Positions 1,371 to 37,205 of a stretch of DNA of 37,205 bases are shown here, piece after piece (the first letter of the stretch is position 1; each line of letters begins with the position of its first letter). The notes under the pieces are model-generated. The model saw only the letters and a list, made by a program, of their open reading frames with translations, ran no database searches and was not told where the DNA came from. The position numbers and the translations under genes were made by a program. The DNA comes from a virus (lineage: Duplodnaviria; Heunggongvirae; Uroviricota; Caudoviricetes), in the IMG/VR virus record IMGVR_UViG_2687453522_000004, one strand, 5' to 3'.

Positions 1371-1442
1371 ATTAGGGGCTATTCCATTTCATCGTCCAAC
1401 AAAATGGGTGCAGTACACGACTGAGGGGCTTTCTGTTTGTAA

Positions 1443-1661
1443 TTACATCCACATAATTTGCTGCCCTGACGGCAACGGGTGCGGCCTTACGGCGTGGACT
1501 TCTCCCGGTTTCACGATGTATCGCTGTACCGACTCATAAGTGATGAACGTGGCGCTGCAATTCACGTTCTGACACTGGTGATAACGCTCTTTTGTCGTGT
1601 CAGTAATATAGCGACTTGTACGCGCATGTGCGGCATGCTGGCATAAAGGACAATGAAACAT
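1443..1661 (-). CDS. ogr: Ogr, zinc-finger activator of P2 late transcription (72 aa; the ORF track extends to 1724 but the conserved start is MFHCPLCQ)
   Basis: Protein MFHCPLCQHAAHARTSRYITDTTKERYHQCQNVNCSATF... with the C-x2-C...C-x4-C zinc-finger pattern; position downstream of D as in P2. Confidence 0.9.
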   Translation of the reverse strand: MFHCPLCQHAAHARTSRYITDTTKERYHQCQNVNCSATFITYESVQRYIVKPGEVHAVRPHPLPSGQQIMWM

Positions 1662-1742
1662 CGCGAGCACCTCTTCCGGTTTTGTTGATGGTGCCATTTT
1701 AGTTAATTTATCCTTATAAAACAAACAGATAAAATAAAAACA

Positions 1743-2906
1743 TCACTCATCATCTTCTGTTTCGTACTCCACATCAGAAAGCCTGACCTCAAGCTCTAAG
1801 GACGTCGTGAAGCCGCTATTATTCAGAAAATGTGTCACCTTAGTGATTGTCCAGTCCTGCTCGTCTATGACGCGCTTAAAGCCTGACACTTTAACCGGTG
1901 TTTCCGTGTAAATATCAGCCCGACCGGTAGCCAGGCTGATGGAGAACTCCGCAACGCCCCGTTGCAGTTTATCCCACTTCGCCTGAGCGGCGCGCATGGC
2001 CTGCGCTTTCGTGGCATATACCGTAGTCAGGGCAAAAACATTGTCAGCCTCACCTGCCATGTATTCACCTTCGCGCGCTTCCGGTACTTTTGGCGCTTTC
2101 TTCTGCGTGACCGGTTTCGCTTTCGGGTGCTCCAGTGCGCGCAGGTGTTTCTCTTTCTTTTTGCGTTTCAGTTTTACCTTCTGCTTTTGCGGCTTCGGGT
2201 CTTTGGTGTGTAACCACTTTGCCGTTACGCCGGTGTAGGCTCCACGGTCAGCAATCGCAAAATGATGGCGGTCACCGTCGCTGCGGGTGATGGTGACCTG
2301 CGGGATTTTTTTACCGCTGGCCGTCACCCCCTGCCCCGCTTTGAGAAACAGCAGTTTTCCCATTTTTACCGACACCTCACCGCCGTTGCGTTCTGCAAGA
2401 CGGGTCAGAAATTTCGCATCAGACTCCTGCGACTGGTCGATGTGCGGGATTTTAATTCCGGCCAGTGACGGAGCGACACTGGCTTCCAGCCTGTTACGGG
2501 AGGCTATCGCCTCAACAATCGCACCGAGCGTGGTGTCATGCCATGAGCCTTCACGGCGGGAATTGAGCGTCCCGCGAAAATCTGCACTCCGGGCGCGGAT
2601 GGTGACCACATCCGGTGCGCCCCGGTGTTCAACCTCATCAACGGTAAATTTCCCTTTGCATACCAGGGCAAAACCTTTCCAGCCGATATACACCGTCAGG
2701 ACAGCGCCACGAATCGGTAGTCCGACCTGCCCGTCGGCATCGTTCAGTTCAATATCAAGCTGGTCAGCCTCAAAGCCCCGGTTATCCGTCAGGGTCATGC
2801 TCATCAGACGGTCGCTGATATTGCCGGTAATATCCCTGCTGTCGAGCATCAGCATGTAATCCGGCGTCAGCGTACTGCCTGCATCAAATGTCAGTGCATC
2901 CAGCAT
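1743..2906 (-). CDS. D: P2 gpD-like tail protein (late control gene D)
   Basis: 387 aa, same length as the remembered P2 gpD and same position after U. Confidence 0.9.
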   Translation of the reverse strand: MLDALTFDAGSTLTPDYMLMLDSRDITGNISDRLMSMTLTDNRGFEADQLDIELNDADGQVGLPIRGAVLTVYIGWKGFALVCKGKFTVDEVEHRGAPDVVTIRARSADFRGTLNSRREGSWHDTTLGAIVEAIASRNRLEASVAPSLAGIKIPHIDQSQESDAKFLTRLAERNGGEVSVKMGKLLFLKAGQGVTASGKKIPQVTITRSDGDRHHFAIADRGAYTGVTAKWLHTKDPKPQKQKVKLKRKKKEKHLRALEHPKAKPVTQKKAPKVPEAREGEYMAGEADNVFALTTVYATKAQAMRAAQAKWDKLQRGVAEFSISLATGRADIYTETPVKVSGFKRVIDEQDWTITKVTHFLNNSGFTTSLELEVRLSDVEYETEDDE

Positions 2907-3385
2907 TATCCCGCCCCCGTCATACCCGTGAATTTAGTCGCCATACTGCCAGCCTTACCGATGAGCGATTCCGCCTGTTTACCGATATCGCCATAAAGCG
3001 CGGCCAGTGATTCATCAACGCGGGTGAGCGACAGCGTAAAATCAATTTTCCGGGGTGTGCCGTCTGCAAAGAAAATACTCCCTGTTTCACTCACCTTGCT
3101 GATGACATACATGCCGTAAATCATGCCGGTGCCATCCAGCAACGGCCACGCCCGCCCCTCCTCTGCCATCAGCCTGAGCGTGGTCATCGTCAGCTTGCCG
3201 CCGGTCAGTTCGGGATAAAGCACACCGGCAAGCGTGATGTTTTCCTCACCCACACCGAGAAACTGAAAAGCGTCCCGTTTACCGATACGGGAATTTGACG
3301 GCCAGCGATAATCTGATTCACGCTGCATGGTCTGGTGTGGCAGCGTCTGGCGCATAAAAACAAACATACCTAACGCGAGCATCAT
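2906..3385 (-). CDS. U: P2 gpU-like tail protein
   Basis: 159 aa; start overlaps the D stop (ATGA); between T and D as in P2. Confidence 0.88.
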   Translation of the reverse strand: MMLALGMFVFMRQTLPHQTMQRESDYRWPSNSRIGKRDAFQFLGVGEENITLAGVLYPELTGGKLTMTTLRLMAEEGRAWPLLDGTGMIYGMYVISKVSETGSIFFADGTPRKIDFTLSLTRVDESLAALYGDIGKQAESLIGKAGSMATKFTGMTGAG

Positions 3386-3399
3386 TTTTCGTCACCTCC

Positions 3400-5847
3400 T
3401 TAACCGTCATGCATCATGCTGGCACGGGCGCGCGCACGTTTATCCCGCTCGTATTTTTCGAGCGCATCCTGTAACTGGCGGTCGAGCTGTGTCCCCGGCG
3501 CAGTACCACCCGTCAGGCTGATGTGATATTCGTTTTTACTCTGGTCTACATAAGAGCGGCCAGCCGGTGCCGTGACCGGCTGATAAGCCTGATAACCTGC
3601 ATAAGAGCTGGTCGCCGGAATATAACCACCGCGGCCATACGTGGCGGCTTGAGTTCTGGCGGCGGTCTGGTCAAGTGTGTCTGACTCTTTGTTGATAACA
3701 CCGAGTTTTTCCAGTACCCAGTCAATACCACTGCGCAGTTTGTTGAACGCATTAAGCGGCAGCATCAGCGCGTCAGCCAGTGCCTGCCCGAACATGACCC
3801 CCGTGTCACGGCAACGGTTCAGGGTGTCCTGAGTGGCTTTGACCGGGGCAATCAGGTTTTTAAACCACTGCCACGCGGCCTGTAACTTTTCACCCAGCCA
3901 GTCAAACACCGGCTTAAGTGGCGTGAACAGTTCCCCCACCGGCGCAAATGCCACTTTCAGCCCTTCAACCACACCGCCAAAGAATGCGCTGACAGGCTCC
4001 CAGTATTTACGGATAAGCAACGCCCCGGCGACAATTGCGGCCACCACGGCCACAACCGGCCAGCTAATAGCCCCGATGGCGGTCATAACAGCACTGCCAA
4101 CCGTCGTGAAGACTGCCCCCATTGCGCCTGCTGCCGCGATGATGGCATTGATGCCGGTGATAACCGGCCAGGCGACAAGACCAATGGCACCGATGATGCC
4201 AGTAAGCGCCAGTGCGCCACCGACAATGAGGCCGATGGTTGACGCCAGTGATTTGTTTTTCTTGATCCAGCCGTCGAGTTTTAACACATACTTTGTGGCC
4301 GTCTGCGTGAGATTACGCAGTGCGCCTTCCTGCTGGTCAAACAGGTCAGTCCCCACCGCCTCATAAGCAGACTGAAACTCCTTAAAGTCACCGCCGAGGT
4401 TGTCCTGCATGATATTTACCAGCTCGGCGGTCTTCCCGTCTGAGGCTTTAAACGCAGCGGTCAGTTTGTCCAGCTTTCCGGTTGAGGCGGCAGTCATCAG
4501 CACGGCGGCGGCTGAGCTGGCCTCCTCCCCGAAAATAGTTTTCATGTATTCAGCCTGCTGGGCAGTACCGAGCCGGTTTTTCTCAAAACTGGCCTGCATT
4601 TCTTTCAGAATGGTAAATACTGGTCGGGTGTTTCCCTTGCTGTCTGAGGTTTTCACACCAAGCTCTTTCAGTGCATCCCATGCTTTTCCCGTCGGTGCCT
4701 GCAGGCGGCTTAACACGGCACGGCTTCCCGTCCCCGCCATTGAACCGGTAATTTTTGCATCATGCAGTGCCCCGACCATTGCGGCGGTTTCTTCAATGCT
4801 GACACCGGCATTTTTTGCCACAGGTGCGGCATAGGTCAGCGCATCGCTCATGCCGTCAAAATCGGCGGCGGTTTTGTTCATCGTCATGGAGAGAACATCC
4901 CCGATATGAGCGACCTTATCGTTTGAAAGCTGAAAGGCGGATTTCATCCCCATCAACAGGGCGGCGTTTTCTTCCATCGTGCGACGGTTCGCCAGCGCCA
5001 TATTCAGCGTGACCGGCGTTGCCGCCTGAATGGCATCAACATCCCCGCCGGCTTTCGCAATGATAATCTGCGCACCGGCTGCATCATCCGCCGAGGCGGC
5101 GGTGTTGTCGCCAAGCTGGCGCGCCTGCTTGCGGAGTGCGGTCATTTCGGCGGAGTCTTTTGCCACTCCGAGCACGGCCTGCAATTCTGAGTTTTTCTGC
5201 TCAAACTCATAACCGGGCATCAGCAGCTTAACTCCGGCCATCGTTCCCGCCGCCGCAATCCCCACACCGGCAGCGCCCACTGAGGCTATATTTCCGGCCA
5301 GTTCCTTTCCGGCCTGATAACGCTGTTTGACTGCGTTAAGTTTTGCCTGTTGCGCACTGACACGCGCCAGCGCATCACGCTGACGGTTAAGCTGTGCGGT
5401 GGTTTCACTGATACGGTTTTTCAGTCCCTGCTCATCATGTGCAAGATTGCGGGTATTAATTCCCACAGCGGCCAGTTCCCGCTGCTGGCGTTTAACGGAA
5501 TCCGTCAGGCGGTTATATTTCGCCTGTAAGTCCTCCGCCGCACGCTTCGCGGATTCCAGCACTTTCGCCTGAGCACGTGTCGGACGTTCGGTGTTTTTAA
5601 ACTGTGTGGCAAGGGCTTCGGCCTCCTGCCGTGCCTTTTCAAGTGCATGACCAGTCACGGCGAGCTGTGCACTGGTCTTGCGAAATCCCTCAATACGGGA
5701 TGCCTGACCGTTCAGCTCGCGCAGTGATTTTTGTGTTTCCCGGATATCCCCCGACAGCGATTTGCTCGCTGTGCGGATGGATTTAAACGGACGGGATGCC
5801 TGGTCAACAGCCCTGAGCAATACCTGTAATTTTACATTGTTACTCAT
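3400..5847 (-). CDS. T: Tail tape measure protein (gpT-like)
   Basis: 815 aa, Ala/Gly-rich with coiled-coil N-terminus and hydrophobic central segments; immediately downstream of E/E'. Confidence 0.92.
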   Translation of the reverse strand: MSNNVKLQVLLRAVDQASRPFKSIRTASKSLSGDIRETQKSLRELNGQASRIEGFRKTSAQLAVTGHALEKARQEAEALATQFKNTERPTRAQAKVLESAKRAAEDLQAKYNRLTDSVKRQQRELAAVGINTRNLAHDEQGLKNRISETTAQLNRQRDALARVSAQQAKLNAVKQRYQAGKELAGNIASVGAAGVGIAAAGTMAGVKLLMPGYEFEQKNSELQAVLGVAKDSAEMTALRKQARQLGDNTAASADDAAGAQIIIAKAGGDVDAIQAATPVTLNMALANRRTMEENAALLMGMKSAFQLSNDKVAHIGDVLSMTMNKTAADFDGMSDALTYAAPVAKNAGVSIEETAAMVGALHDAKITGSMAGTGSRAVLSRLQAPTGKAWDALKELGVKTSDSKGNTRPVFTILKEMQASFEKNRLGTAQQAEYMKTIFGEEASSAAAVLMTAASTGKLDKLTAAFKASDGKTAELVNIMQDNLGGDFKEFQSAYEAVGTDLFDQQEGALRNLTQTATKYVLKLDGWIKKNKSLASTIGLIVGGALALTGIIGAIGLVAWPVITGINAIIAAAGAMGAVFTTVGSAVMTAIGAISWPVVAVVAAIVAGALLIRKYWEPVSAFFGGVVEGLKVAFAPVGELFTPLKPVFDWLGEKLQAAWQWFKNLIAPVKATQDTLNRCRDTGVMFGQALADALMLPLNAFNKLRSGIDWVLEKLGVINKESDTLDQTAARTQAATYGRGGYIPATSSYAGYQAYQPVTAPAGRSYVDQSKNEYHISLTGGTAPGTQLDRQLQDALEKYERDKRARARASMMHDG

Positions 5848-6267
5848 TCGTGTTTCCGCTTCGCCGGAGCGCCTTTTCGCGCCATGTGATGAGTTCGGTC
5901 AGGCTCATGGGATACAGTTCTGATGGCGGCCAGTGAAATATCACTGCCACATCCGCCATCAGGTCATCGACCGAGAGATTTTTCGGAAACGTCACTGCAC
6001 CGAGTTCGGCGACAAAAAACCGACCACCTTACCGGCCAGCGCCACAAGGTCAGGCAGTTCCAGTGCGGCGACTTCCTGCTCGGTCAGCATCGGTGCCGTC
6101 ATGCGCGGCAACACCTTAATCAGTGCATCGACTTCGGAGTTTGCGACCGCTGCCAGACTGACACCGCGCAGCGTCCCGGCACTGGGTTTCATCAGCGTGA
6201 CCTGTTCGATAACCTGCTCACCACGTTTGACCGGATTGTCCAGGGTAATCACATTTTCTTTGTTCAT
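5840..6267 (-). CDS. E': gpE+E' tail assembly chaperone made by programmed -1 frameshift (142 aa)
   Basis: Slipping at T TTT TTG (6013..6019) gives 85 zero-frame codons plus 57 -1-frame codons, ending at a TAA 2 nt before the T start codon. The 142-aa total equals the remembered P2 E+E' length. Confidence 0.85.
5992..6267 (-). CDS. E: Tail assembly chaperone gpE (zero-frame product)
   Basis: 91 aa ORF between FII and T, ending ...VGFLSPNSVQ. Confidence 0.9.
   Translation of the reverse strand: MNKENVITLDNPVKRGEQVIEQVTLMKPSAGTLRGVSLAAVANSEVDALIKVLPRMTAPMLTEQEVAALELPDLVALAGKVVGFLSPNSVQ
6013..6019 (-). other. Programmed -1 frameshift heptamer T TTT TTG (E to E+E')
   Basis: On the minus strand, GGT TTT TTG is in the E zero frame 7 codons before the E stop; the -1 frame stays open to 5840. 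Confidence 0.85.
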
Positions 6268-6323
6268 GGTTTTCTCACTTATGAATCGGGGTTAACCGGT
6301 CAGCCAGGCTGACCGGATGAAAA

Positions 6324-6842
6324 TCACAGGCCGATATTGCGGCGGTGTTGCTCCAGCCGGTCGACGCCGTTCACCTTCTCAATCATGTTGATGGTGTCGA
6401 TTTCGACCAGCTCCTTACCGTCCATCGTCAGCCGGAAATAGGTGCAGACCACGGAGATTTTCGACTCAGTGTCTTCTCCCTGTTTACCCTCGCCGGTGTC
6501 GATTTCTTTCTGACGTCCACGCATGACCACCTCGACGGCCACCGTTTCGCCGGTATCGTCACGCTGGTAAGAGCCTGCAAAACGAATCGGCACAGCATCC
6601 ACACCGGTTGCGGCGTAAAGCTCCCAGATAACCGAATCCGGGAAGCCCCCGAGCGACCACTCCATTGACAGCGCATCGTCATCAAGGCCGAGGTCTACCG
6701 GTGCGCTGCCGTTCATTCCCGCACCGCGATAGTTTTCGAGCTTACGGGTCAGTTTTGGCAGCGTGACGGACTTTGCAACGCCCTGATAGCTGTAGCCGTT
6801 CAGAAAGACGTTCATTAACTTGAGTTTGCGCGGCATTGCCAT
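6324..6842 (-). CDS. FII: Tail tube protein (gpFII-like)
   Basis: 172 aa ORF directly downstream of the sheath gene; length and position as in P2. Confidence 0.9.
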   Translation of the reverse strand: MAMPRKLKLMNVFLNGYSYQGVAKSVTLPKLTRKLENYRGAGMNGSAPVDLGLDDDALSMEWSLGGFPDSVIWELYAATGVDAVPIRFAGSYQRDDTGETVAVEVVMRGRQKEIDTGEGKQGEDTESKISVVCTYFRLTMDGKELVEIDTINMIEKVNGVDRLEQHRRNIGL

Positions 6843-6854
6843 CGGTCAGGCTCC

Positions 6855-8045
6855 TTAATTGCTGTTAACCGAGGTGACCAGATTTGCCAGGTATTTATCG
6901 GTAATACGCTGGCGCAGGGTCAGGTTTTCGAGAGGAGGCACCGGTGTATAGTCGTAGTCGATATACAGTTTTCCGGCCTTGAGGGTTTCCGCATCGTTGG
7001 ATTCTTCGCTGAACCAGCATGTGCCATCCACGATATAGCCGTTTGTTTTCAGCTCTCGGAATTTGGCATTGATGCCATCAACGATGTCGCGAATCAGCGT
7101 TGCGGTGATGGGCTTGTCCACCGCCCACATGTGCGCCTCAGCCATCGTGTCGGCCAGCACCTGCGCGGTGCGGGTGTAGTTTTCAAAGAGGAACAGCGGG
7201 TCATCAGAGCAGGTACGGTTACCCCAGAAGCGGAAACCGTCACGGCGAATCAGCGTTGTGACGCCTGACTCATTCAGCAGGTCAGCATCGGTGCCGGACT
7301 CCTGCAAATCCCAGAATACAGATGCGCTGATGCCGGTAACACCGTTCACCCCAACGTTGGACAGTGTTTTATGCCAGCCCTGCTCCTGGTCGATTTTAGC
7401 GCGCAGACCCAGCGCACGGGCGGTGGCATACGCGGTGGCGGTGGTACTGGTGACCGTATCCCATGCGAGGAAATCCGGCCAGATGACCATCAGCTCACGC
7501 TGGCTGAAATTCTGGCGGTAGGCTTTCACCTCGGAAATGGTTTTACAGCCCCATGCGCTGATATACCCGAAAGCGCGCAGCTTCTGACAGACTGATGCCA
7601 GTGCGACGGCAACCTCTTTGGTGTCCAGTCCCGGCACACCGAGAATGCGCGGCTTAACACCGGTTACCGACTCCGCCGCCAGCAGGGCTTTCAGTCCGGT
7701 GTACTGACCGTTTTCGTCGGTGGTGCCGATGATATTGGAAACGGTCTGCGCGAGTTTCGTTTCCTCGTCGTCACCGGTGCCGTCTTCCACACGCACGACA
7801 ACGGTGACCGGTTTTGACTGGTCGGCGATGGCCTGTAACGACGCCGCCAGCGTGCCTTTTTTACCAGCCTTTGCAATTGCGCTCTGCACATTGGTAATCA
7901 GCACCGGTTTATTGAGGGGGAAGGTTTCCGCATCCGCATCGCTGGCCGTGCAGACCATGCCGACAATGGCAGTGGATACGGTGGAAATGACGCGGGTGCC
8001 GTCGTTAATCTCCAGCACCTGCACGCCGTGATGATAGTCACTCAT
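6855..8045 (-). CDS. FI: Contractile tail sheath protein (gpFI-like)
   Basis: 396 aa ORF; length and position as in P2. Confidence 0.92.
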   Translation of the reverse strand: MSDYHHGVQVLEINDGTRVISTVSTAIVGMVCTASDADAETFPLNKPVLITNVQSAIAKAGKKGTLAASLQAIADQSKPVTVVVRVEDGTGDDEETKLAQTVSNIIGTTDENGQYTGLKALLAAESVTGVKPRILGVPGLDTKEVAVALASVCQKLRAFGYISAWGCKTISEVKAYRQNFSQRELMVIWPDFLAWDTVTSTTATAYATARALGLRAKIDQEQGWHKTLSNVGVNGVTGISASVFWDLQESGTDADLLNESGVTTLIRRDGFRFWGNRTCSDDPLFLFENYTRTAQVLADTMAEAHMWAVDKPITATLIRDIVDGINAKFRELKTNGYIVDGTCWFSEESNDAETLKAGKLYIDYDYTPVPPLENLTLRQRITDKYLANLVTSVNSN

Positions 8046-8104: not shown

Positions 8105-8673
8105 CTATTTGTCCCGGTTGGCTAAGGGATGACACAATTTATTTTTTGTCACTGAGGCGGGGAATTTTTTATAGAGCGTGGACAGGCCAATATCAAAAAT
8201 CAGTGCCACGCGTTGACGTGATTCCCCTGCAGCCAGCAACCGCCCGGCCTGCTCCCACTCACTCGCGGTGAGTTTCGGACGTCTGCCACCAATACGACCT
8301 TTGGCTCTGGCCGCCTCCAGTCCGGCGCGTGTCCGCTCGACAATGAGTTCTCGCTCCATTTCAGCCAGGGCACCCATCACATGAAAGAAAAAACGCCCCA
8401 TCGGCGTGCTGGTATCAATGGCATCCGTCAGGCTGCGAAAATTAATGCCGCGTTCGCGCAGCTCCTCAACCAGAATGACCAGATGCCGCATACTACGCCC
8501 CAGCCGGTCCAGCTTCCAGACTACCAGAGTGTCACCTTCCGATAATGTTCTGAGCAGTTTTTTCAGCCCCGGCCTGTCGGACTTCGTGCCGCTGATTTTA
8601 TCCTCAAAAATCAGCTCACATCCTGCGCACTCCAGCGCGTTACGCTGCAATTCCGTGTTCTGGTCATTTGTTG
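8105..8673 (-). pseudogene. Serine DNA invertase (Pin/Gin/Hin/Cin family), C-terminal fragment separated from its start by an IS66-family insertion
   Basis: Translation ...LQRNALECAGCELIFEDKISGTKSDRPGLKKLL...GDTLVVWKLDRLGRS...MGRFFFHVMGALAEMERE... is resolvase/invertase-like with a C-terminal HTH. Reading upstream in frame runs into the IS end instead of the MLIGYVRVS N-terminus. Confidence 0.88.
8666..8673. repeat. Target-site duplication ATTTGTTG, left copy (IS66-family insertion)
   Basis: Exact 8-bp direct repeat also present at 11129..11136 directly flanking the IS ends. Confidence 0.85.
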
Positions 8674-8714
8674 GTAAGCGTGCAGCAAGAACCGTATTGA
8701 CGGGGATGTGTTAT

Positions 8715-10250: not shown

Positions 10251-10298
10251 ACCGGGTATATTACCAGGCTCATTCAGCGTCGACCAGGATAAAGAGGC

Positions 10299-28602: not shown

Positions 28603-28611
28603 ACAGTAAAA

Positions 28612-28634
28612 GACCACCTCCTAAGGAGGTGGTC
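28612..28634. terminator. Probable bidirectional rho-independent terminator after the cargo gene
   Basis: Perfect 10-bp stem GACCACCTCC / GGAGGTGGTC with a 3-nt loop, 10 nt after the stop, with T/A-rich runs on both sides. Confidence 0.65.
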
Positions 28635-28841
28635 CTTGTATAATAAAAAGAACCAGTTTTTATTGTTAATAATACAATTCTCGAATTTCAACATAGACTT
28701 ATTGTACCACCAGTAAAATCATCAATATTAATATATAGAAAAAAAGAAATGTCGATTGTTTGTACGTAGCGTAATCATATTAACATATACAGATAAACAG
28801 CAACCTTACCATTATGCAACCAATCTAAAACATTATGTTTA

Positions 28842-29834
28842 TTACTCTGAATAACCAGAAAACCCACTCCACTCATCTACACTAGGATATGAAAATTGCT
28901 TTTCATTGTAATTGACGATCGCACCGCGTACTAACGCCTCAAGCTCCCATCGCTGCGGCCTGATACCGTTTTGAGCAAGGTCAACACGGATACGGGTGAT
29001 TTGCAATCGTTCAGACCGGGTCAGTCTGGCCGATGGTGCAATTTCATGTGGTTTTAACGGGCTTCCGTTTCTTTGCTGACGACCTGGCGTTCTCCGACCG
29101 TGTTTTAATGCACCCCTGAGCGCCCTCACGACCTCCGGGTCATTCCATTCGATAACACCGTCATCAACCAGATTTAGCACTGCTGCGGCGTGCTCAGAAG
29201 GTGTGGGAGCCGGTAACGAAGTATCACCACCGGTGAGCTTTCCACAGTTATTGACAGGACTCCGAGGCGCGGCGATGCCGCTTTTTAAAGTCAAAGGCTC
29301 AACGACCGGAACTTTCGGCACAATGCGCCAGTCCGTCGTTCTGGTGATATGAATATGACGCGCGCCGAGATGCGGCGCGTAAATGCCGACCACTCTCTCG
29401 ACTTCTTCCTCGTACTCGTTAACGTCATCCGACAGACTACGGGCGACCCTGACAGTCTGACAATCGCGCGGGACATTTGCCCCGCCCTGCGCGCTGATAT
29501 ACAGCGCAAAATCACCACTGTCTGCGGCGGCGCGTGCAGCCTCGACGCGCTCGTCAAACTCATCAGCAATGCTGACGCCGCGAGGCAATTTGCGTAGTTC
29601 ACGGTAAGCCCCCATTGTCGGCAGGCCAACCGTTTTAAATTGCGGAATGCGCCACGTTGACGCCCATGCGGTAACAGCCGCTGCAGTGTCTTTCAGCGGC
29701 CTGCCGGTGTCGTTATCGAGCTGACCATCCAGTGCATAGCCGTCGATGTTTTTTGAAATGTATTTCGCGATATATCCCGCAGCACCGCCCCGGTTAAGGT
29801 GTTTTGCCTGAAAACGGTTTCGCGCGGCTCCTCT
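28842..29834 (-). pseudogene. A: Replication initiation protein gpA-like, C-terminal fragment (about 330 codons) cut off from the N-terminal part by an IS21-family insertion
   Basis: Reading upstream from the ORF start at 29615 stays open and P2 A-like (...RGAARNRFQAKHLNRGGAAGYIAKYISKNIDGYALDG...) up to the IS boundary at 29835. Confidence 0.85.
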
Positions 29835-29919
29835 TGCGTATTACCGTGAAGGAGATCGGTGAGTAACATCGATGGAGATCGGTTCGTGTCACTTTCACAG
29901 AACCGTTTTTAAATTACCT

Positions 29920-30669
29920 TCACTGATCTCCTTCGGTCAACGGAGATTGTATTTTCCGCATTGATTCTCCTTTAAGTTCGATCTTGATACTGCCATGAAC
30001 CAGTCGATCTAGGATGGCATCCGCATGTGTGGAGTCTCCGATCATTTTGTACCAGTTTTCCACCGGCAACTGGCTCACTACGATGATTGAGCCTCGTTGG
30101 TACATCAGATCCACTATTTCCAGCAGGTCGCTACGCTGTTCTGATGAGAGAGGTTCCAGCCCCCAGTCATCCAGAAGCAGCAGATCGCTATTATTCAGCC
30201 TGGTCAAAAGTTTGCTGTATCTTCCATCAGCATGCCCCTGATAGCACTGTTCCATCAGCGCTTTAAGGCGATAATAGTAGACCTTGTATCCCTGTCGGCA
30301 GGCATTATGACCAAGTGCACATGCCAGGAACGTTTTACCGCTGCCGGTGGCCCCGGTCAGTAAAATATTTTGTTTCAGGGTTAACCAGTTTCCCTGACTG
30401 AGTGAACGGATGAGGGCCCTGTCCAGCCCTCTATTGTTACGATAATCCAGCTTTGATAACTCAGCATTAAGTCTGAACCGTGCATGTTTGATCAGACGCT
30501 CTGCCTTCCTGTTTTCACGGCAGGTTAGTTCTTCTGCTGTCAGTAATGACAGGCGTTCTTCGAAGCCCAGCTCCTGGTATGTGCCCGGTTGAGCAAGTTG
30601 CTTTTTAAGCGCATCACGGAAGCCGGTGAGTTTAAGTGCGGTCAGTTGTTCGTAAAGATGATTCATCAT
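29920..30669 (-). CDS. istB: IS21-family ATP-binding helper IstB
   Basis: 249 aa with Walker A (GATGSGKT) and Walker B (LLLLDDWG) motifs, DnaC-like. Confidence 0.88.
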   Translation of the reverse strand: MMNHLYEQLTALKLTGFRDALKKQLAQPGTYQELGFEERLSLLTAEELTCRENRKAERLIKHARFRLNAELSKLDYRNNRGLDRALIRSLSQGNWLTLKQNILLTGATGSGKTFLACALGHNACRQGYKVYYYRLKALMEQCYQGHADGRYSKLLTRLNNSDLLLLDDWGLEPLSSEQRSDLLEIVDLMYQRGSIIVVSQLPVENWYKMIGDSTHADAILDRLVHGSIKIELKGESMRKIQSPLTEGDQ

Positions 30670-30680
30670 TGGATCCCGTA

Positions 30681-32222
30681 TCAGTGGTAATACTCACTGC
30701 CGCGTACGTTTTCGTGTTCCATCGTGGATAACAGATCTGGTTTTGGATCCTGAACAGGTTGTTTATCCAGACCTTTTTCCAGGATCGATTTAATACCTGA
30801 CAGACGCCATACCTTTGTTTCCAGAGCTCTTGCACATGCTGCATTAAGTCTGGCTTTACTGTATTTTTTATGAAGGTTCAGGAGTCCAAGGCAGAAGCGA
30901 TAGCTTTGTTCCGGATGTGGACGAGAGTTCAGTATATGAAGCACATAACTATGAGTTTCACTGCCTATGTGCCCCGCCCATTCCAGAAGACGCTCTGGCG
31001 TCCAGGTGGCATGCTGTCGATGAGCTTCAGGCATGTGCTCGTTGCGGGTACTGTAGCCATAAGTACGCTTGCGCGGGTGCACAGCAACCTCCTGCCCCTG
31101 ATTGAAGAGTCTTACCAGTTCTCCGGAGATCCATGCTTCCAGTTGCTGGCCTAACAGCGAACATGGAACCGAGTAGTAATGTTTGTCGATTTCCACGTGG
31201 TAATCGGCATGAACTCTGACTTTCTTCACCAGGGTGTAACTGTAACTGGCTTCAGGAAGAGGCTTCAGTGCGGGTTTATCAAGCTGGATGAAGAGTTCTG
31301 CACGTGAATAACCCAACTTCTGCATTATTTTGTTATTCAGTCTTTCCAGCAACTCCCGAATGCGCTGATTAAGCGATGCAAGGCTGTAGAAGATCTCATG
31401 CCTGATTCGGGCCATGATCCAGCGTTCAACAACCTGAACGCCAACTTCAGCTTTGGCTTTATCTTTCGGTTTACGTGGCCGCGCAGGCAAAACTGCGACA
31501 TTATAATGCTCAAGCATCTGCTGGTAGGTAGGGTTAACGTCAGGATCATACTTACATGCCCTGGATGTGGCGCTTTTCAGATTGTCCGGAACAACAAGTT
31601 CAGGAACGCCACCCAACCACTGGAAGCAGCGAACATGACTCATCACCCAGTCTTCAAGCTGCTGAGACCAGGTGGCCTCTGCCCATGTGTAACTTGATGC
31701 CCCGAGAACAGCTACGATGACCTGAGCAGTTCTTATTTCTCCGGTCTCAGGGTCGGTAACGCCAACGGTAGGTCCACAGTAATCAACGAAAAGTTTTTCG
31801 CCAGCTTTATGTACCTGACGCATTGATGGTGAAGTGGTTTTGAGCCATTCACGGTACATCCGGCAGTAATGGTTATAGCTGTAAAAACCGCCTGGATTAC
31901 GCTCACAGTATTCTTCCCAGAGTAGCTGCAGCGTCACGCATTTATTACGCAGTTCCCGGTGTACTGTAGCCCAGTCAGGCAGAGAGTGCTTCTTCATCTT
32001 AACCTGGGTCTGAAGGAACGCATGTTTTAGTTTTGTATCATCCCATCCTGTAGGTAAGGGCCACTGCTTTATGCCAAGTTGAGCCGCCCGATTAGCATAT
32101 CTGGATACAACGGAAGGGGAGATTGCAAGACTACGACCAATTTGTCGATGGCTGAGTCCAACACCGTATTTAAGCCTAAGAATTTCTTTAAGTTTTCTCA
32201 TAGAAATTGGAACTGTTGGCAT
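30681..32222 (-). CDS. istA: IS21-family transposase IstA
   Basis: 513-aa ORF with N-terminal HTH and DDE core, upstream of and nearly abutting istB. Confidence 0.85.
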   Translation of the reverse strand: MPTVPISMRKLKEILRLKYGVGLSHRQIGRSLAISPSVVSRYANRAAQLGIKQWPLPTGWDDTKLKHAFLQTQVKMKKHSLPDWATVHRELRNKCVTLQLLWEEYCERNPGGFYSYNHYCRMYREWLKTTSPSMRQVHKAGEKLFVDYCGPTVGVTDPETGEIRTAQVIVAVLGASSYTWAEATWSQQLEDWVMSHVRCFQWLGGVPELVVPDNLKSATSRACKYDPDVNPTYQQMLEHYNVAVLPARPRKPKDKAKAEVGVQVVERWIMARIRHEIFYSLASLNQRIRELLERLNNKIMQKLGYSRAELFIQLDKPALKPLPEASYSYTLVKKVRVHADYHVEIDKHYYSVPCSLLGQQLEAWISGELVRLFNQGQEVAVHPRKRTYGYSTRNEHMPEAHRQHATWTPERLLEWAGHIGSETHSYVLHILNSRPHPEQSYRFCLGLLNLHKKYSKARLNAACARALETKVWRLSGIKSILEKGLDKQPVQDPKPDLLSTMEHENVRGSEYYH

Positions 32223-32415
32223 AGGTATCCTTTACCGGAATGGCAAAAGATACAGATCAACACACCTGTGAAGTTCCAATAACATTGATGGAGATCACTG
32301 AATAACAAAATGAGTCAAAAGTGATCTCCATCGATGTTATTCAGCGATCTGTTCAAATGTTATTACCCGATCTCGATGGAAGTTATTGAGTGATCTCCTT
32401 TCATGAAAATACGCA

Positions 32416-33707
32416 CCTCTTTCGTCGCCATCCTCTTTGAGCGCATAGCGACGCATGATTTCGATAATCTGGTTACGCTGGCGTGGATGACAAAAAAGCA
32501 TCATATGCCAGTGCGGCGTTCCGTCGTGGTGTGGCTCGACGACTCGCAAACCGTAGACCTGTAAATCATTATCCTTGAATGCCGTGCGCATCAGGCTCCA
32601 GATACGGCAGAGATAACGCTGCGCATCCTTTGGATTAAATGCCTCATCGTTCCAGCCGTGATTAAGCTGAACGGTTTTACTTTCGCCTTTTCCGACCTGA
32701 CGTGTCGGGTGATACTTTGACGGCGCGGTCAGCGTGATAAACATCCCCACATCACCCTCTGCGGCGGCGTAACGCTCAATACCGGCAATGGTGTTCATCA
32801 GCTCCATCCGGCGAATTTCAGGATTAGAAATACTGCCCATCACCTTACTGATAAGGTCGATGCGCTCGCCGGTTTCCCTGTTTTCAAGGTCACACGATTT
32901 AAGAAATTCCAGATTTGCCTGGCGGCGCGCACGCACATCACGAATGGCGTGTTTACTGGCATAAGGAGAACGGTCTTTATTGACCTCCCCGACAGCTATC
33001 AGTAACGCCTCATGCCAGCGCATACGCTGGCCTTTAAGCTGATGAGTCCACCACTCATCGTTAAACAGGCGGGCAATGGCAGAATATGCCTGCCTCGTGG
33101 TCATCTGTCCTTTACGGTATTTTTTCCAGTAGAGCGGGGAAATATTGAAAGCACGTGCAGCGCCAGCAACATGACCATACAGGTGAGCCTGCGCCTCATC
33201 CGTAAACAGCGATTCTTTTTCACCATGCGCATCAACCCATGCATCGCAGAGTTCCTCATACATCATGAAAAGCTGCGATGAGATACGGGCGGCAAACTTT
33301 TTCAGCTCCTTGTCATTCATTCCCGGCAGGCGCGCATAGTGGTCACGCTCTGCCAGAAACAGCAACGACGCGTCGGTGTTCATTTCATGGCGCTGATTCA
33401 CACGCTCAATGCGCGGCCATAAACGACGCTGAAAAGTAGATGTGAGGAAATAAAACCCGTGCACCGGGCTTTTATTGCGCCGGATGTAGTCATAGCGTGA
33501 AGTAAACAGCGAGCGCAAAAAGTAAGGCAGGCGGTTAATCGTGGATAAAACACCTTGCACCTGACGCATCTCGTCACGTGTAAGAGGTCTTTCGCGCCCG
33601 ACAGCCTCGCGTGGCGCGTTCCATGCATAAGCACCGGTAAACGCCTTACCGGTGCCTGCGGTAAATGCTGACGGAGGGACAAAACGCCCGGAGGCTTTAA
33701 CGGCCAT
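32416..33707 (-). pseudogene. A: Replication initiation protein gpA-like, N-terminal fragment (about 430 codons); the frame runs into the IS and stops at 32337
   Basis: Start MAVKASGRFVPPSAF (the ORF track extends to 33749); the P2 A-like sequence ends ...EDGDERGA at the IS junction, then reads IS-derived residues. Confidence 0.85.
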
Positions 33708-33972
33708 ATGAGCCAAAAGCCTCTGAACAACGCTTGCTGAGTTGCTCAACCTGCGCGTTTAAATCAGCAAAAGATTTTGCGCTTCCGGTCAGAATATCGT
33801 GATGCATCAGGCCGGAAACGAGCTGGCCTAATTTCGGGTAATAACCAACCACCGCCAGCCATTCCTGACCGGCGTTTTTACCGCTTTCCGCTCTCTTTTT
33901 CTCGTGGAGAATAAACTGAAAGCTGTCACTGGTAACGACATAACGTTCGCCAATTTCAATACGAATACTCAT
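33697..33972 (-). CDS. Small early-region hypothetical protein (P2 orf83-like position)
   Basis: 91-aa ORF immediately upstream of A, overlapping its start. Confidence 0.6.
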   Translation of the reverse strand: MSIRIEIGERYVVTSDSFQFILHEKKRAESGKNAGQEWLAVVGYYPKLGQLVSGLMHHDILTGSAKSFADLNAQVEQLSKRCSEAFGSYGR

Positions 33973-34193
33973 GCCGTTCTCCGGTAATGTTTGTTTTTTG
34001 CTTCAAAGACTGACTGACAGGAAACACAACGCGTGGCTGACGGATAAGCCGCACGACGGGCAGCAGGTATTGGCGCGTCACACTCTTCGCAAACCAGCGC
34101 AGAAACACCGCAATGTTTTACCCTTGCCGCGTTAATCTGGCGCTCCAGTAATTCAGCCTGTTGTTCCTGAATAAAATCCACGTTGTCCGGCAT
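33969..34193 (-). CDS. TraR/DksA-family C4 zinc-finger protein
   Basis: 74 aa with two Cys pairs: C-x2-C (CEECDAPIP) and C-x2-C (CVSCQ). Confidence 0.7.
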   Translation of the reverse strand: MPDNVDFIQEQQAELLERQINAARVKHCGVSALVCEECDAPIPAARRAAYPSATRCVSCQSVFEAKNKHYRRTA

Positions 34194-34498
34194 TACCAGC
34201 TCCTTTTGTCGTTCAGCTTCTTAAATTCATCAGCGCAATAACTGGCGAGTTCTGTCGTTAATTTTGTCAGTTCATCCACTGAGGAAATTTGCTTGTGGAA
34301 TACAGCGCGTTTAACAAGTAAATTGACCACATCAGACAGGAGGTTTAATTCACTCTGATAAATCGCGATAACAGATTCAGTTATTTCGCGCTTCTCTTTA
34401 TCAATACCAAGTTGAATAAGAGACAAATCACCATTTTTCATAACGGCGATTTTTAAGGCGTTATTCAGTAATACAACCGAACGAGAACAGGACATCAA
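34193..34498 (-). CDS. Hypothetical protein (small early-region ORF, AT-rich)
   Basis: 101-aa ORF with ATGA-type overlap to its neighbours; no recognisable motif. Confidence 0.5.
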
Positions 34499-34719
34499 AG
34501 CACCTCCCCGCGAGACAATCCGATATTGTGAAATTTTTCCGACTCCTGACTGAGCAGCTCAACTATCTCCACGCGGGATAACTCCGCCTTTGTGATGTGG
34601 CGAATCATGGCGTCAAGATGAGAAGAAAAGCGCGTCGCAGCGTCGGCCTGTGCTTCGGTTCTGGCCTGTTGCAGCAGTAATGCGTATTTACCGCACTGAT
34701 TTTCAGAAACTGTATGCAT
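34495..34719 (-). CDS. Hypothetical protein (small early-region ORF)
   Basis: 74-aa ORF immediately downstream of B. Confidence 0.5.
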
Positions 34720-34782
34720 GACTTTCTCCAGGCAAAAAGAAGCCCCGCACGATTAAGTGCGTTAAAAACTCTGGTTAATTAT

Positions 34783-35289
34783 TTAATGCAGATATTGCTC
34801 TGGTTTTACCGACGTCAGAATTGTCGGTGCATACTCAAACAGACTGAATAATTCACGTAATGCACGGAATAAAGCATCACGCCAGTAACATGATTCTTCA
34901 TTAATTCGCCAGTACGGCTGATTGAATTCTTTTTCTGTCAATCCCGCATGCATAAATAAAGTACGACGCTGACTGACTGTTAAAAAACTAATATATGCAT
35001 ACTCACTTGCGCCGACCTGACGGCGTTTTGAGAATGCGCCACGCAATTCATCAATTGCACAAACCAGTCGTTCACGTTCGACGTCGTTCATTTCTTCAAA
35101 ACGCATCGTTGCGTGACGCTGTTTTAACTGTGCATGAAAGCAAACCGTTAGCCGTTCGCGCTCCATCATCTGATTATAATAATCACATGTATCCTGCCAG
35201 CGAGGGACGGCAAGATGCTTGCCAATTATCCGGCGCATAGCTGCTGGCTGTTTTTCAACGAGATTGAGCGTCATCACTGTCATTTCCAT
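34783..35289 (-). CDS. B: Replication protein gpB-like (helicase-loader-like early protein)
   Basis: 168-aa ORF; the conserved start is probably the internal MTLNLVEKQPAAMRR. Confidence 0.85.
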   Translation of the reverse strand: MEMTVMTLNLVEKQPAAMRRIIGKHLAVPRWQDTCDYYNQMMERERLTVCFHAQLKQRHATMRFEEMNDVERERLVCAIDELRGAFSKRRQVGASEYAYISFLTVSQRRTLFMHAGLTEKEFNQPYWRINEESCYWRDALFRALRELFSLFEYAPTILTSVKPEQYLH

Positions 35290-35477
35290 ACCCTCCGGCT
35301 TTTCAGAAAGGTCAGAGCCTTTTTTAACGGACTCTGTTTTTTGGTGCGGATAATGATTCCCTTACGCCCCTTACCGTGGGTGATGGTGAAGTCAATCGCC
35401 CTGGGGCTTTCGTTACGCAATAACTGAGCAATACAACGCGGCTCATTCATAATCACAACCCCATCCACAAAAGCCAT
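35280..35477 (-). CDS. Small early protein (P2 orf78-like position between cox and B)
   Basis: 65-aa basic ORF overlapping the cox end and the B start. Confidence 0.55.
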   Translation of the reverse strand: MAFVDGVVIMNEPRCIAQLLRNESPRAIDFTITHGKGRKGIIIRTKKQSPLKKALTFLKSRRVWK

Positions 35478-35740
35478 GCATCACGCTGTTCAACCGGTCG
35501 GTTATAAAACGCCTCACGTACAGCGCGATTAAACTCAGGAATGAAAACCCATTTTTCACCGGCACGAGCCTTCGGTTTGCAAGGATCACGCAATTCAATA
35601 ATTGGTAATTTATTTGCCTTCACCATTTCACTGACGGCTGTCTTTGGCTTCCCTAATAAATCAGCAAATTTATCCACATGAACCGCATCAAGCGGATACT
35701 GAATCACATAATTTTCAGCGTCCATATATGGTACCCTCAT
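35453..35740 (-). CDS. cox: Cox-like excision control / early-operon regulator
   Basis: 95-aa ORF (the start may be the Met at codon 6), first gene of the leftward early operon, divergent from C; motifs KLPIIELRDP...RAGEKWVFIPEFNRAVREAFYNRP resemble Cox. Confidence 0.75.
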   Translation of the reverse strand: MRVPYMDAENYVIQYPLDAVHVDKFADLLGKPKTAVSEMVKANKLPIIELRDPCKPKARAGEKWVFIPEFNRAVREAFYNRPVEQRDAWLLWMGL

Positions 35741-35802
35741 AGGATCCAGCCCTTTCTAAACCACTCAAAACCGTTTAGATGCTGGTTTATTCTCAAATCA
35801 AT

Positions 35803-35820
35803 GGAACCTATATAGGTTCC
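35803..35820. promoter_or_regulatory. Perfect 18-bp palindrome GGAACCTATATAGGTTCC in the C/cox switch region (candidate operator overlapping a -10-like TATATA)
   Basis: Exact palindrome; its core CCTATATAGG recurs at 35841..35850. Confidence 0.6.
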
Positions 35821-35837
35821 AGTTTTGAGGGGATTTA

Positions 35838-35855
35838 GTCCCTATATAGGCACCA
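35838..35855. promoter_or_regulatory. Second operator-like element AGTCCCTATATAGGCACC in the C/cox switch region
   Basis: Shares the 10-bp palindromic core CCTATATAGG with the first element, 34 bp centre to centre, just upstream of the C start. Confidence 0.5.
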
Positions 35856-35861
35856 TGTCAA

Positions 35862-36155
35862 ATGAAATTAAGCGAAAAGATTAAGGCCTTGCGTGAGGCT
35901 GAAGGGCTAAGCCAATCAAAATTCTGTGAAATCATAGAGTTACCGCTAAGCACACTTAAAAAATATGAAGGAGGAAACTTTGAACCCGGTGGCACAGCTT
36001 TGCTAAAAATCACTATGCATCCCACATTCCAAAAATATGCTCTATGGCTTATGACAGATAAAACCGCGCCGGACGCAGGACAAATCGCACCGGCTCTCGC
36101 GCACATTGGGCCAGAGTCAACAGAGTCCAACCACTCCGCGAAAAGGATTGGCTAA
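35862..36155 (+). CDS. C: Immunity repressor C-like (HTH)
   Basis: 97 aa; N-terminal HTH and C-terminal motif ...LWLMTDKTAPDAGQIAPALAHIG resemble the remembered P2 C; divergent from cox. Confidence 0.85.
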   Translation: MKLSEKIKALREAEGLSQSKFCEIIELPLSTLKKYEGGNFEPGGTALLKITMHPTFQKYALWLMTDKTAPDAGQIAPALAHIGPESTESNHSAKRIG

Positions 36156-36224
36156 CTCTATATAAAGATTACATTTTCACCATTTGCTACCAAGATGGTG
36201 AATACAGCGCCGGAGGGCTTTCTT

Positions 36225-37205
36225 ATGGCAATTAAGAAGCTCGATGATGGTCGCTATGAAGTGGACATTAGACCTCGCGGTCGCGACGGAAAACGCATCC
36301 GCAGGAAATTCGAAAGAAAAGCTGAAGCACTAGCATTTGAGCGATACACAATCGCCAATGCCAGTCAGAAAGAATGGGGAGGCCAGCGAGCAGACCGCCG
36401 GACTTTGAGTGAGTTGCTGGACATCTGGTGGAAATATCACGGGCAAAACCACGAGCATGGAACAAAAGAGTTTAATCATCTACTCAAAACCATCAGCGGC
36501 ATAGGTGATATACCAGTGAGCAGGATGAGCAAAAGGGCTTTGATGGATTATCGTTCCATGCGACTACGTGATGGTATCAGTGCCGCAACGATAAACCGTG
36601 ACATGTACCGATTATCCGGCATGTTCACAAAATTAATTCAATTGGATGAATTTTCCGGGCAACACCCAATTCACGGACTGCCGCCACTGGCGGAGGCCAA
36701 CCCTGAAATGACGTTCCTGGAAAAAGCAGAAATCGAAAAACTGTTAAATGTTTTGGCTGGTGATGACTTACTTGTCGCGCTTTTATGTCTGAGCACCGGA
36801 GGAAGATGGACGGAAGTTGCCACGCTAAAACCAGCACAGATTACAAATTGCAGGGTTACCTTCCTGAAAACCAAAAACGGTAAAAAGCGAACCGTGCCGA
36901 TTTCTGAGGAACTGGAGAAAAAAGTTAAAGAGGAGGCCAGCGCCAAATTATTCAAAGTTGATTATGAGAAATTTTGCGGGATTTTACGCAGAGTGAAACC
37001 TGATATACCACCCAATCAGGCAACCCACATCCTGCGGCATACATTCGCAAGCCATTTCATGATGAATGGGGGCAATATAATCGCACTGCAACAGATTCTG
37101 GGACATGCGAGCATTCAGCAGACGATGGCCTATGCGCACCTTGCGCCTGACTATCTGCAAAATGCCGTCGCTCTGAATCCACTAAAAGGCGGAGTGACGT
37201 TATAA
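36225..37205 (+). CDS. int: Tyrosine integrase Int-like (start MAIKKLDDGRYEVDIRP; the ORF track starts at 36195)
   Basis: C-terminal catalytic motifs (...ATHILRHTFASHFMMNGGNIIALQQILGHASIQQTMAYAHLAPDY) with the R..H-x-x-R..Y pattern; the stop is the last codon of the window. Confidence 0.9.
   Translation: MAIKKLDDGRYEVDIRPRGRDGKRIRRKFERKAEALAFERYTIANASQKEWGGQRADRRTLSELLDIWWKYHGQNHEHGTKEFNHLLKTISGIGDIPVSRMSKRALMDYRSMRLRDGISAATINRDMYRLSGMFTKLIQLDEFSGQHPIHGLPPLAEANPEMTFLEKAEIEKLLNVLAGDDLLVALLCLSTGGRWTEVATLKPAQITNCRVTFLKTKNGKKRTVPISEELEKKVKEEASAKLFKVDYEKFCGILRRVKPDIPPNQATHILRHTFASHFMMNGGNIIALQQILGHASIQQTMAYAHLAPDYLQNAVALNPLKGGVTL

Follow-up and report, generated by a model that had tools for sequence, protein, structure and literature searches.

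The DNA analysed here, a stretch of 37,205 nucleotides referred to in full as the window, belongs, as judged by its sequence, to a P2-like (Peduovirus) prophage of an Escherichia coli ST167 hospital clone, and this prophage carries a cargo gene that encodes a putative full-length homologue of the defence protein Hna. We suggest that the prophage is likely undergoing recent and essentially neutral erosion driven by insertion sequences (IS): (i) ISEc22 would first have split the tail-fibre invertase, (ii) IS150 would have entered the loop of the ogr terminator and ISEc12 the replication gene A, both within the ST167 clade, with the insertion in A expected to abolish phage replication, and (iii) in sub-branches the ISEc12 copy would have given rise to adjacent deletions that took away what was left of A together with the cargo and genes for head, lysis and baseplate. 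The relative order of IS150 and ISEc12 as well as the neutrality of the process are what we infer. In this model, the cargo, C, int and the structural genes are intact because the window is only about two substitutions away from the IS-free state and not because of selection.

The window matches the chromosome of the E. coli ST167 strain CRE1493 with 100% identity. The late genes (positions 1418-25000) share 96-97% nucleotide identity with P2-like phages (P2, pro483, fiAA91-ss and others), and in the RefSeq annotation the gene order is collinear with that of the P2-like phages, i.e. Q P / O N M L X Y K lys R S V W J I H G / FI FII E T U D ogr together with the early int-C / cox-B-A genes (Table 1). 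The att core is a 27-bp exact direct repeat between fieF and cpxP, at 3106-3132 and 41342-41368 of the CRE1493 locus (L001); its left copy is located outside the window and its right copy 137 bp past the right end. Apart from the three IS sites, every prophage gene is a full ORF. Compared to P2-like prophages, the element has the three IS insertions and, in the interval that separates the tail-fibre assembly gene from FI, a tail-fibre segment that can be inverted, together with a Din invertase; compared to the P2-like carrier S51, it has a different att site and integrase (fieF/cpxP here and yegR/yegQ in S51).

Table 1. Features of the prophage in window coordinates (a dot stands for no strand)
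Feature	Position	Strand	Remarks
IS150 (IS3 family)	1..1417	-	RefSeq; window begins inside element
ogr terminator hairpin, right half	1418..1440	-	loop occupied by IS150
ogr, late-gene activator	1443..1661	-	intact; annotated ogrK
Tail genes D, U, T, E/E', FII, FI	1743..8045	-	complete ORFs; 0 SNPs vs clonal relatives
Din-family invertase, 3' part	8105..8673	-	codons 12 to end; Pfam Resolvase + HTH_7
ISEc22 (IS66 family)	8674..11128	-	2455 bp; 8-bp TSD ATTTGTTG at 8666-8673 and 11129-11136
Invertase, stranded 5' end	11129..11161	-	MLIGYVRVSTN with catalytic serine, read from translation
Invertible tail-fibre segment (Sv'/U' and U/Sv)	11214..13196	.	inverted crossover sites 11214-11242 and 13168-13196; opposed tail-fibre/assembly ORFs
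H, I, J, W, V, S, R, lysC/B/A, K, Y, X, L, M, N, O	12712..22767	-	all full length
Terminase ATPase P and portal Q	22941..25747	+	intact ORFs
Cargo, Hna-family helicase-nuclease (putative)	26119..28602	+	827 aa; GC ~37%; full ORF in P2 Q/A hotspot
Hairpin right after cargo stop, terminator-like	28609..28637	.	dG -18.9 kcal/mol
Gene A, C-terminal fragment	28842..29834	-	codons 430-759, containing YIAKY 450-454
ISEc12 (IS21 family)	29835..32415	-	2581 bp; 5-bp TSD CCTCT
Gene A, N-terminal fragment	32416..33707	-	codons 1-429 plus second TSD copy
Early operon: small ORFs, B, cox	33697..35725	-	all intact
cox-C switch region	35726..35861	.	clade-specific derived A>G at 35832, between two CCTATATAGG repeats
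C repressor	35862..36155	+	intact; Pfam HTH_3; 100% identical in loci L007 and L009
Tyrosine integrase (int)	36225..37205	+	intact; ends exactly at window end; Pfam Int_N + Phage_integrase

All three IS elements, which belong to the IS3, IS66 and IS21 families, carry terminal inverted repeats and are flanked by family-typical target-site duplications (TSDs) of 3, 8 and 5 bp, respectively. ISEc12 interrupts A precisely behind codon 429 of 759, ahead of the YIAKY tyrosine pair (Y450/Y454), and this split is predicted to cause the loss of phage replication and particle formation. Its junction on the istA side is present in 73 genomes and that on the istB (cargo) side in 41, and an uninterrupted A beside the cargo, 100% identical over the reconstructed empty site, is present in 13 genomes. 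ISEc12 is also present at other sites in P2-like prophages, i.e. in gene E of strain S51 and in the structural region of 98195 and ES4. In ES4, T is annotated as two pieces.

ISEc22 splits the invertase after codon 11, and as a consequence the YVRVSTxxQ motif is present but cut off from the resolvase and HTH domains. The 200-aa invertase annotated as "intact" in RefSeq is a fusion to the end of the IS, with an IS-derived N-terminus and without the catalytic serine. The invertase shares with the Din-family switches Gin of Mu, Cin of P1 and Pin of e14 the N-terminal MLIGYVRVSTNDQ serine-recombinase motif, the Resolvase and HTH_7 domains and a segment of ~1.9 kb with opposed Sv/U gene sets and inverted crossover sites at both ends; unlike in these systems, the gene is interrupted. 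Because of the split, the fibre segment is frozen unless another Din invertase acts in trans. Din-family invertases are accessory host-range switches rather than key phage functions. Thus, the suggestion made from the sequence alone that two key functions are knocked out by IS elements stands to the extent that A and the invertase are both split; the invertase is not essential, and the hit in A alone should be lethal for the phage. The ISEc22 junction is shared by 81 genomes, among them the fetched relatives without IS150 and without ISEc12 in A, and the tnpC gene of ISEc22 is flagged as frameshifted in all carriers. An intact 197-aa invertase, with 100% identity over the reconstructed junction, is encoded by strain 600055. 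The same prophage without ISEc22 was not found; the sole 100% identical empty site is that of strain 600055 in a P2-like prophage other than the present one, with a different cargo and att site, and this makes ISEc22 the earliest of the three insertions.

The complete IS150 (1443 bp, L001 3975-5417) has an intact 3-bp TSD, CGA, and ends at window position 1417, 25 bp past the ogr stop codon. The restored ogr terminator consists of a 16-bp stem, 13 pairs of which form a perfect inverted repeat, followed by a T-run (dG -28.3 kcal/mol), and it is uninterrupted in 83 genomes. The IS150/ogr junction is present in 72 of 5426 genomes and the 100% identical IS150-free ogr junction in 12; the ogr protein (WP_000468308.1) is annotated in relatives too. 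The third IS had been described as abutting ogr at the prophage edge: IS150 is indeed located directly 3' of ogr but not at the edge, given that the prophage continues for ~870 bp beyond IS150, including an ORF of 213 aa, up to the att core. This ORF was considered as a second defence gene truncated by IS150, which is ruled out by the intact TSD and by the same 213-aa protein adjoining ogr in the 83 IS150-free genomes. A match of the ORF to PD-T4-10_B covers its C-terminal two-thirds only.

The 2.5-kb ORF had been recognised as defence cargo from the sequence, and the comparisons agree with this assignment. The cargo matches PADLOC PDC-S28 over its full length (E=0) and Hna of Sinorhizobium meliloti (PDB 10uj/9yhn/9ykj) with an E-value of 7.3e-121, residues 60-792 aligning with residues 62-806 of Hna. 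Its N-terminal part is an SF2 helicase (Pfam ResIII, DEAD and Helicase_C_2), and the motifs GSGKT (67-71), DDAH (160-163), GPD (698-700) and ECK (714-716) are present; for the C-terminal half, including the nuclease domain, there was no match in Pfam or NCBIfam. GPDNLW...IECK aligns with GPDNLW...FECK of Hna, and K716 corresponds to the catalytic K729 of the S. meliloti protein. Thus, the two systems share a single gene of similar length (827 aa here versus 845 aa), the SF2 motifs and the PD-(D/E)xK GPD...ECK signature including the catalytic lysine; they differ in that the S. meliloti gene is located on the pSymA megaplasmid whereas the present gene, known from sequence, is located on an enterobacterial prophage and is listed by PADLOC v2 only as the candidate PDC-S28. 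Hna was reportedly described by Sather et al. in 2023 as a helicase-nuclease abortive-infection system. In S. meliloti, Hna combines an SF2 ATPase with a fused PD-(D/E)xK 3'-5' ssDNA exonuclease, and ATP maintains an auto-inhibited dimer that is freed by phage SSB during infection, resulting in abortive infection (Hooper et al. 2026, PMC13381803). By analogy, we suggest that the cargo may act by an Hna-type abortive-infection mechanism.

As in the P2-like Q/A (old-tin) defence hotspot (Rousset et al. 2022, PMC9122126; Vassallo et al. 2022, PMC9519451), the low-GC cargo is placed precisely in the interval that separates the portal gene from the replication endonuclease gene. In a promoter scan of the + strand from Q to the cargo ATG, no match was obtained at the scan threshold. 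The same cargo is found on different P2 backbones and at two att sites, and in comparisons with other P2-like prophages dS is 0.004-0.019 for the cargo versus 0.06-0.19 for the backbone. Only 2-11 substitutions separate the cargo from that of other carriers, given that the cassette has been exchanged recently.

That the prophage is decaying, as proposed in the sequence-only reading, is correct, and the cargo, C, int and the structural genes are complete ORFs as stated there. That reading had also named what would speak against selective retention, namely close relatives with the same prophage free of IS elements and identical in sequence. For IS150 and ISEc12 such relatives exist: the window is separated from CFS3273, 219, 4/2-1 and 26561 by 2-3 SNPs in ~41 kb that comprise prophage and flanks, A is intact in relatives at this distance and ISEc22 is still present, with CFS3273 having the ISEc22 insertion alone. 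One clade-specific SNP, in L at position 19499, is non-synonymous (E146K). A cargo-deleted strain has 0 SNPs except for one alignment-end mismatch by the ISEc12 duplication, and two single-base indels. With 2-3 SNPs over ~41 kb there has been no time for decay by point mutations, and full-length ORFs are, therefore, the neutral expectation and silent on selection; the structural genes are no more damaged than the cargo. The alternative that the insertions are very recent, already allowed for in the sequence-only reading, is thus supported for IS150 and ISEc12, with ISEc22 being older. The proposed comparison of dN/dS between the cargo and the structural genes does not discriminate: within the lineage there are 0 cargo substitutions, and against 83%-identical variants the omega of the cargo is ~0.04-0.05, i.e. 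within the range of the backbone (about 0-0.5 per gene, mostly <0.2).

The cargo is not conserved across the descendant lineages. Among the 73 genomes with ISEc12 in A, the junction on the cargo side is kept in 41, and an 18.55-kb ISEc12-adjacent deletion that removes the cargo is common to 19 genomes, six of which are derivatives of one isolate. Given that the carriers total 69 (41 plus 28; all full length and at least 99% identical), the remaining ~13 of the 73 genomes would also be without the cargo, a number obtained by arithmetic from counts rather than by a per-genome join. Altogether, ~32 of the 73 genomes lack it; the independent losses behind them are probably few, which tempers the case for neutral erosion. 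In two further genomes, ISEc12 is located 14 bp upstream of the cargo ATG. The cargo-keeping CRE1493 and the cargo-deleted 51008369SK1, SCEC020007 and Ryan-0026 are part of one ST167 branch (PMC7193042). With near-identical relatives free of IS150 and ISEc12 and with the cargo gone from sister genomes, the proposal that the prophage is kept for its accessory function is not supported.

Could the host nevertheless keep a crippled prophage for a beneficial Hna cargo together with C and int, while the phage functions are left to die? Several observations point in this direction and run contrary to neutral erosion: the cargo is full length in 69/69 carriers; strain 26561 has lost ~21 kb of structural genes and kept the cargo, A, C and int, which is the pattern predicted by selective retention; and the omega values speak for strong purifying selection on the cargo across the phage population. 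Similarly, P2-like elements have been published that are defective and whose replication genes are often pseudogenised although their defence genes are near-identical (PMC13586616). Weighed against the short distance to the copies free of IS150 and ISEc12, the equally intact structural genes, the uninformative dN/dS, the separation of the cargo from its upstream region by ISEc12 in two genomes and the cargo losses, which include successful and internationally spread NDM-5 ST167 isolates, we consider such a domestication unlikely. That the insertions are mis-assembled repeats or annotation artefacts is hardly credible: IS elements are a classic source of mis-assembly and RefSeq wrongly annotates the invertase as intact, but every junction recurs unchanged in 41 to 81 complete genomes that were assembled independently, and all three TSDs are correct for their family.

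Alternatively, selection may have favoured an immobilised prophage, in that the loss of A together with the SNP in the cox-C switch would reduce the risk of lysis or the exploitation by P4-like satellites. The fixation of both the A knock-out and the A>G change at 35832 in the ST167 clade is in agreement with this idea, as is the finding that replication genes are the core genes most often pseudogenised in defective P2/P4 elements (PMC13586616). ISEc12 has, moreover, inserted repeatedly in P2-like prophages (A, upstream of the cargo, E of S51, and the structural region of 98195 and ES4), but these hits may equally reflect IS activity or target preference. P2 prophages are not SOS-inducible and are rarely released, and inactivation of A should, therefore, bring little benefit. 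The frequency of the knock-out is explained equally well by one insertion that hitch-hiked in an expanding clone, and parallel independent knock-outs of A were not seen in this lineage; we regard immobilisation by selection as improbable. In a broader version, the ISEc12 lesions, including the loss of Hna in the globally spreading K48/NDM-5 ST167 branch, would be non-neutral, reflecting selection against the Abi cargo or for immobilisation in a hospital-adapted clone, with the cox-C mutation as part of the same adaptation; this we find quite improbable. We, therefore, favor recent and essentially neutral erosion.

P2-like prophages, the Q/A defence hotspot, Hna and defective P2 elements with defence genes have all been described already. 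Defective P2/P4 elements keep near-identical defence genes, and whether this reflects domestication or ongoing exchange has been raised as a question (NAR 2026, PMC13586616). The present prophage shares with these elements a disrupted replication gene and a conserved defence gene; it differs in that the time scale is readable (2-3 SNPs) and in the loss of the defence gene from sister genomes, and this speaks for neutral erosion here. It provides a worked example that intact genes beside IS hits are no proof of selection if the insertions date back by just a few SNPs. The ST167 genomes document this erosion in steps, from ISEc22 to IS150 and ISEc12 and on to the ISEc12-adjacent deletions that take the defence gene. 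The PADLOC candidate PDC-S28 corresponds to Hna, and the Hna content varies among ST167 isolates, which could matter for their susceptibility to phage therapy.

The RefSeq annotation and an identity of 96-97% between the window and P2, pro483, fiAA91-ss and other Peduoviruses show that, judged by sequence, the element is a P2-like prophage located between fieF and cpxP. All 37,205 bases are 100% identical in the E. coli chromosome of strain CRE1493 (ST167 O89b:K48:H9, NDM-5; PMC7193042) and in dozens of other clinical isolates. Because the two copies of the att core lie outside both window ends, the prophage is slightly larger than the span assigned to it in the sequence-only reading.

That reading had claimed that replication gene A is knocked out by an IS element, and this holds: ISEc12 severs the gene exactly after codon 429 of 759, shortly before the YIAKY motif (residues 450-454), and from this gene structure phage replication should be abolished. 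The tail-fibre invertase is interrupted as well, by ISEc22 after codon 11, but it was wrongly counted among the key functions: in the Gin/Cin/Pin systems, loss of the invertase fixes host range and is not lethal to the phage. ISEc22 cuts off the native N-terminus with the catalytic serine and leaves the invertible fibre segment and both of its crossover sites undamaged. The "intact" 200-aa recombinase in RefSeq takes its first ~11 residues from the ISEc22 end and lacks the catalytic serine; this entry is an annotation artefact, repeated in all carriers of the insertion that were fetched. The tnpC gene of ISEc22 carries a frameshift flag in every fetched carrier, and this copy may itself be non-autonomous. 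The remaining genes are complete ORFs throughout, and so is A once reconstructed. Many complete E. coli assemblies (NZ_CP086338, NZ_CP085060, NZ_CP067250, NZ_CM129037 and others) have been rotated to begin with the start codon of P2 gene A, presumably because start-fixing tools take the phage replication endonuclease for the replicon initiator; this rotation divides the prophage between the ends of the record.

IS150 does abut ogr, where it interrupts a perfect terminator hairpin at the loop (-28 kcal/mol for the restored hairpin), but it does not mark the prophage edge, since a 213-aa ORF and attR lie beyond it. This ORF adjoins ogr in 83 IS150-free genomes too and is unchanged beside ogr in several different P2-like prophages, which suggests that the ogr/att end is a third, little-noted cargo position. 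Its match to the PADLOC model for PD-T4-10 toxin component B (E 1e-34) covers the C-terminal two-thirds of the model only, and no A-component partner is annotated adjoining the ORF.

Features of the prophage and its relatives (window positions unless a locus is named: L001, CRE1493 chromosome around the window; L002, strain 26561; L003, a strain with ISEc12 upstream of the cargo; L008, strain S51)
Feature	Position	Target duplication	Remark
att core, 27-bp exact direct repeat CATGTGGGGGAAGACAGGGATGGTGTC	~870 bp left of window start; 137 bp right of window end
213-aa ORF WP_000416606.1	L001 3215-3856 (~150-790 bp left of window start)		between IS150 and attR
IS150	ends 1417	3 bp, CGA	25 bp past ogr stop codon
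Annotated recombinase WP_062914736.1	8105-8707
ISEc22 (IS66 family)	8674-11128	8 bp, ATTTGTTG	Din-type invertase
ISEc22 tnpC	8711-10250
Severed invertase N-terminus	11129-11161		MLIGYVRVSTN
Crossover sites of fibre segment	11214-11242; 13168-13196
18.55-kb deletion, 51008369SK1	11282-29834
E146K	19499		gene L
AATGCAA repeats (three)	26030-26056
Cargo ORF	26119-28602 (+)		827 aa
ISEc12 (IS21 family)	29835-32415	5 bp, CCTCT	gene A
A>G	35832		cox-C switch region
ISEc12 upstream of cargo	L003 IS end 29898; ATG 29920	L003 29899-29905 (window equivalent ~26098-26104)	219 and 4/2-1
D'-P' fusion	L002 26856-28514		26561
ISEc12 in tail gene E	L008 30608-32910		S51

The cargo (GC ~37% vs ~55% in the backbone) is flanked by portal gene Q and by gene A; P2-like phages are well known to have their old/tin defence hotspot in this interval (PMC9122126, PMC9519451). 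It matches the PADLOC candidate PDC-S28 over its full length, and its residues 60-792 align with the solved Hna of S. meliloti (PDB 9yhn/9ykj/10uj; E 7e-121), with which it shares the SF2 motifs GSGKT and DDAH and the nuclease motif GPD...ECK; cargo K716 is the alignment partner of the catalytic K729. Hna is a single-protein abortive-infection system, a 3'-5' ssDNA exonuclease that, with ATP bound, stays an auto-inhibited dimer until a phage SSB releases it (Hooper et al., PMC13381803), and from the homology we infer that the cargo would act by the same mechanism. The AT-rich stretch directly upstream of the cargo contains three AATGCAA repeats, where a regulator of cargo expression could bind; a consensus scan of the plus strand from Q to the cargo ATG found no sigma-70 promoter-like site.

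Each empty site was reconstructed and then searched for in 5,426 complete E. coli genomes. An uninterrupted A adjoining the same cargo is present in 28 of these (13 of the 28 being 100% identical over 2,215 bp), and 12 genomes match the ogr junction without IS150 at 100% identity. CFS3273 has only the IS66-family element; strains 219 and 4/2-1 have this element together with ISEc12 14 bp before the cargo ATG, where the ribosome-binding site alone stays joined to the cargo, probably uncoupling it from its native promoter. In 26561, an independent deletion of ~21 kb fuses truncated D to truncated terminase P, with loss of all structural and lysis genes from the interval; Q, the cargo, A, the early genes, C and int are retained.

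With the IS elements removed, 2-3 SNPs in ~41 kb, prophage and chromosomal flanks taken together, separate the fetched relatives' loci from the window. The window's clade has just two substitutions of its own: E146K in head-completion protein L, which is non-synonymous and the sole coding substitution on the window's branch, and A>G in the switch region, which is derived (6/6 outgroup loci have A) and specific to the ST167 clade with IS150 and the interrupted A. The latter position lies between two CCTATATAGG repeats, 30 bp ahead of the start codon of C, and is possibly within an operator or promoter.

The same cargo occurs in the IS-free P2-like prophages of M10 and WP2-W18-CRE-03 at the same att site, in S51 at another att site and in viral contigs of ~30 kb, always between Q and A. 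Compared with other carriers, dS is 0.004-0.019 for the cargo and 0.06-0.19 for the backbone; this roughly tenfold lower divergence marks the cargo as a cassette that was exchanged recently. Comparison with variants of 83% identity gives an omega of ~0.04-0.05, and the gene is therefore functional at the population level, which holds equally for intact phages. Defective P2 elements that keep near-identical defence genes, with replication genes often pseudogenised, have been described, the question of domestication being left open (PMC13586616); the general observation of a defective P2 element with a conserved defence gene is thus already known.

From full-length cargo, C, int and structural genes beside the IS hits, the sequence-only reading had argued that the prophage is kept for an accessory function, with very recent insertions as its alternative. 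At 2-3 SNPs, however, full-length cargo, C, int and structural genes are uninformative on selection, as point-mutation decay is expected in no ORF after so little divergence, and near-identical relatives that are IS150-free or have an intact A speak against retention, as do sister genomes in which the cargo is deleted. Such relatives are exactly what the sequence-only reading had named as its refutation. The IS66/invertase junction is found in 81 genomes, the IS150/ogr junction in 72 and the IS21/A junction in 73 on the istA side and in 41 on the istB (cargo) side; the cargo is present in 69 (41 + 28). The gap between 73 and 41 is explained by strain 51008369SK1, which has the same three insertions and has lost 18.55 kb from the exact istB end of ISEc12; gone are the cargo, what had remained of A on that side and every head, lysis, baseplate and fibre gene. 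This junction occurs in 19 genomes (6 derived from one isolate) from Switzerland, China, the USA and elsewhere, and by arithmetic from the counts, not genome by genome, ~13 further genomes must be cargo-less. CRE1493, with cargo, and 51008369SK1, SCEC020007 and Ryan-0026, with the cargo deleted, belong to the same ST167 branch (PMC7193042). The cargo is not spared from deletion, and we regard selective retention of the prophage for it as improbable.

The explanation that we favor, with good confidence, is neutral IS-driven erosion, caught early. An extra ISEc12 within the structural region of 98195 and ES4, in the latter of which the annotation shows tape-measure gene T as two pieces, adds a further decay event, and in S51 an unrelated P2-like prophage has ISEc12 in its tail gene E; such recurrent hits in P2-like prophages suggest high activity or target preference of ISEc12. 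In total, the element type and its defence gene are both known, and the three IS insertions are simple, recent events in a clone that is expanding.
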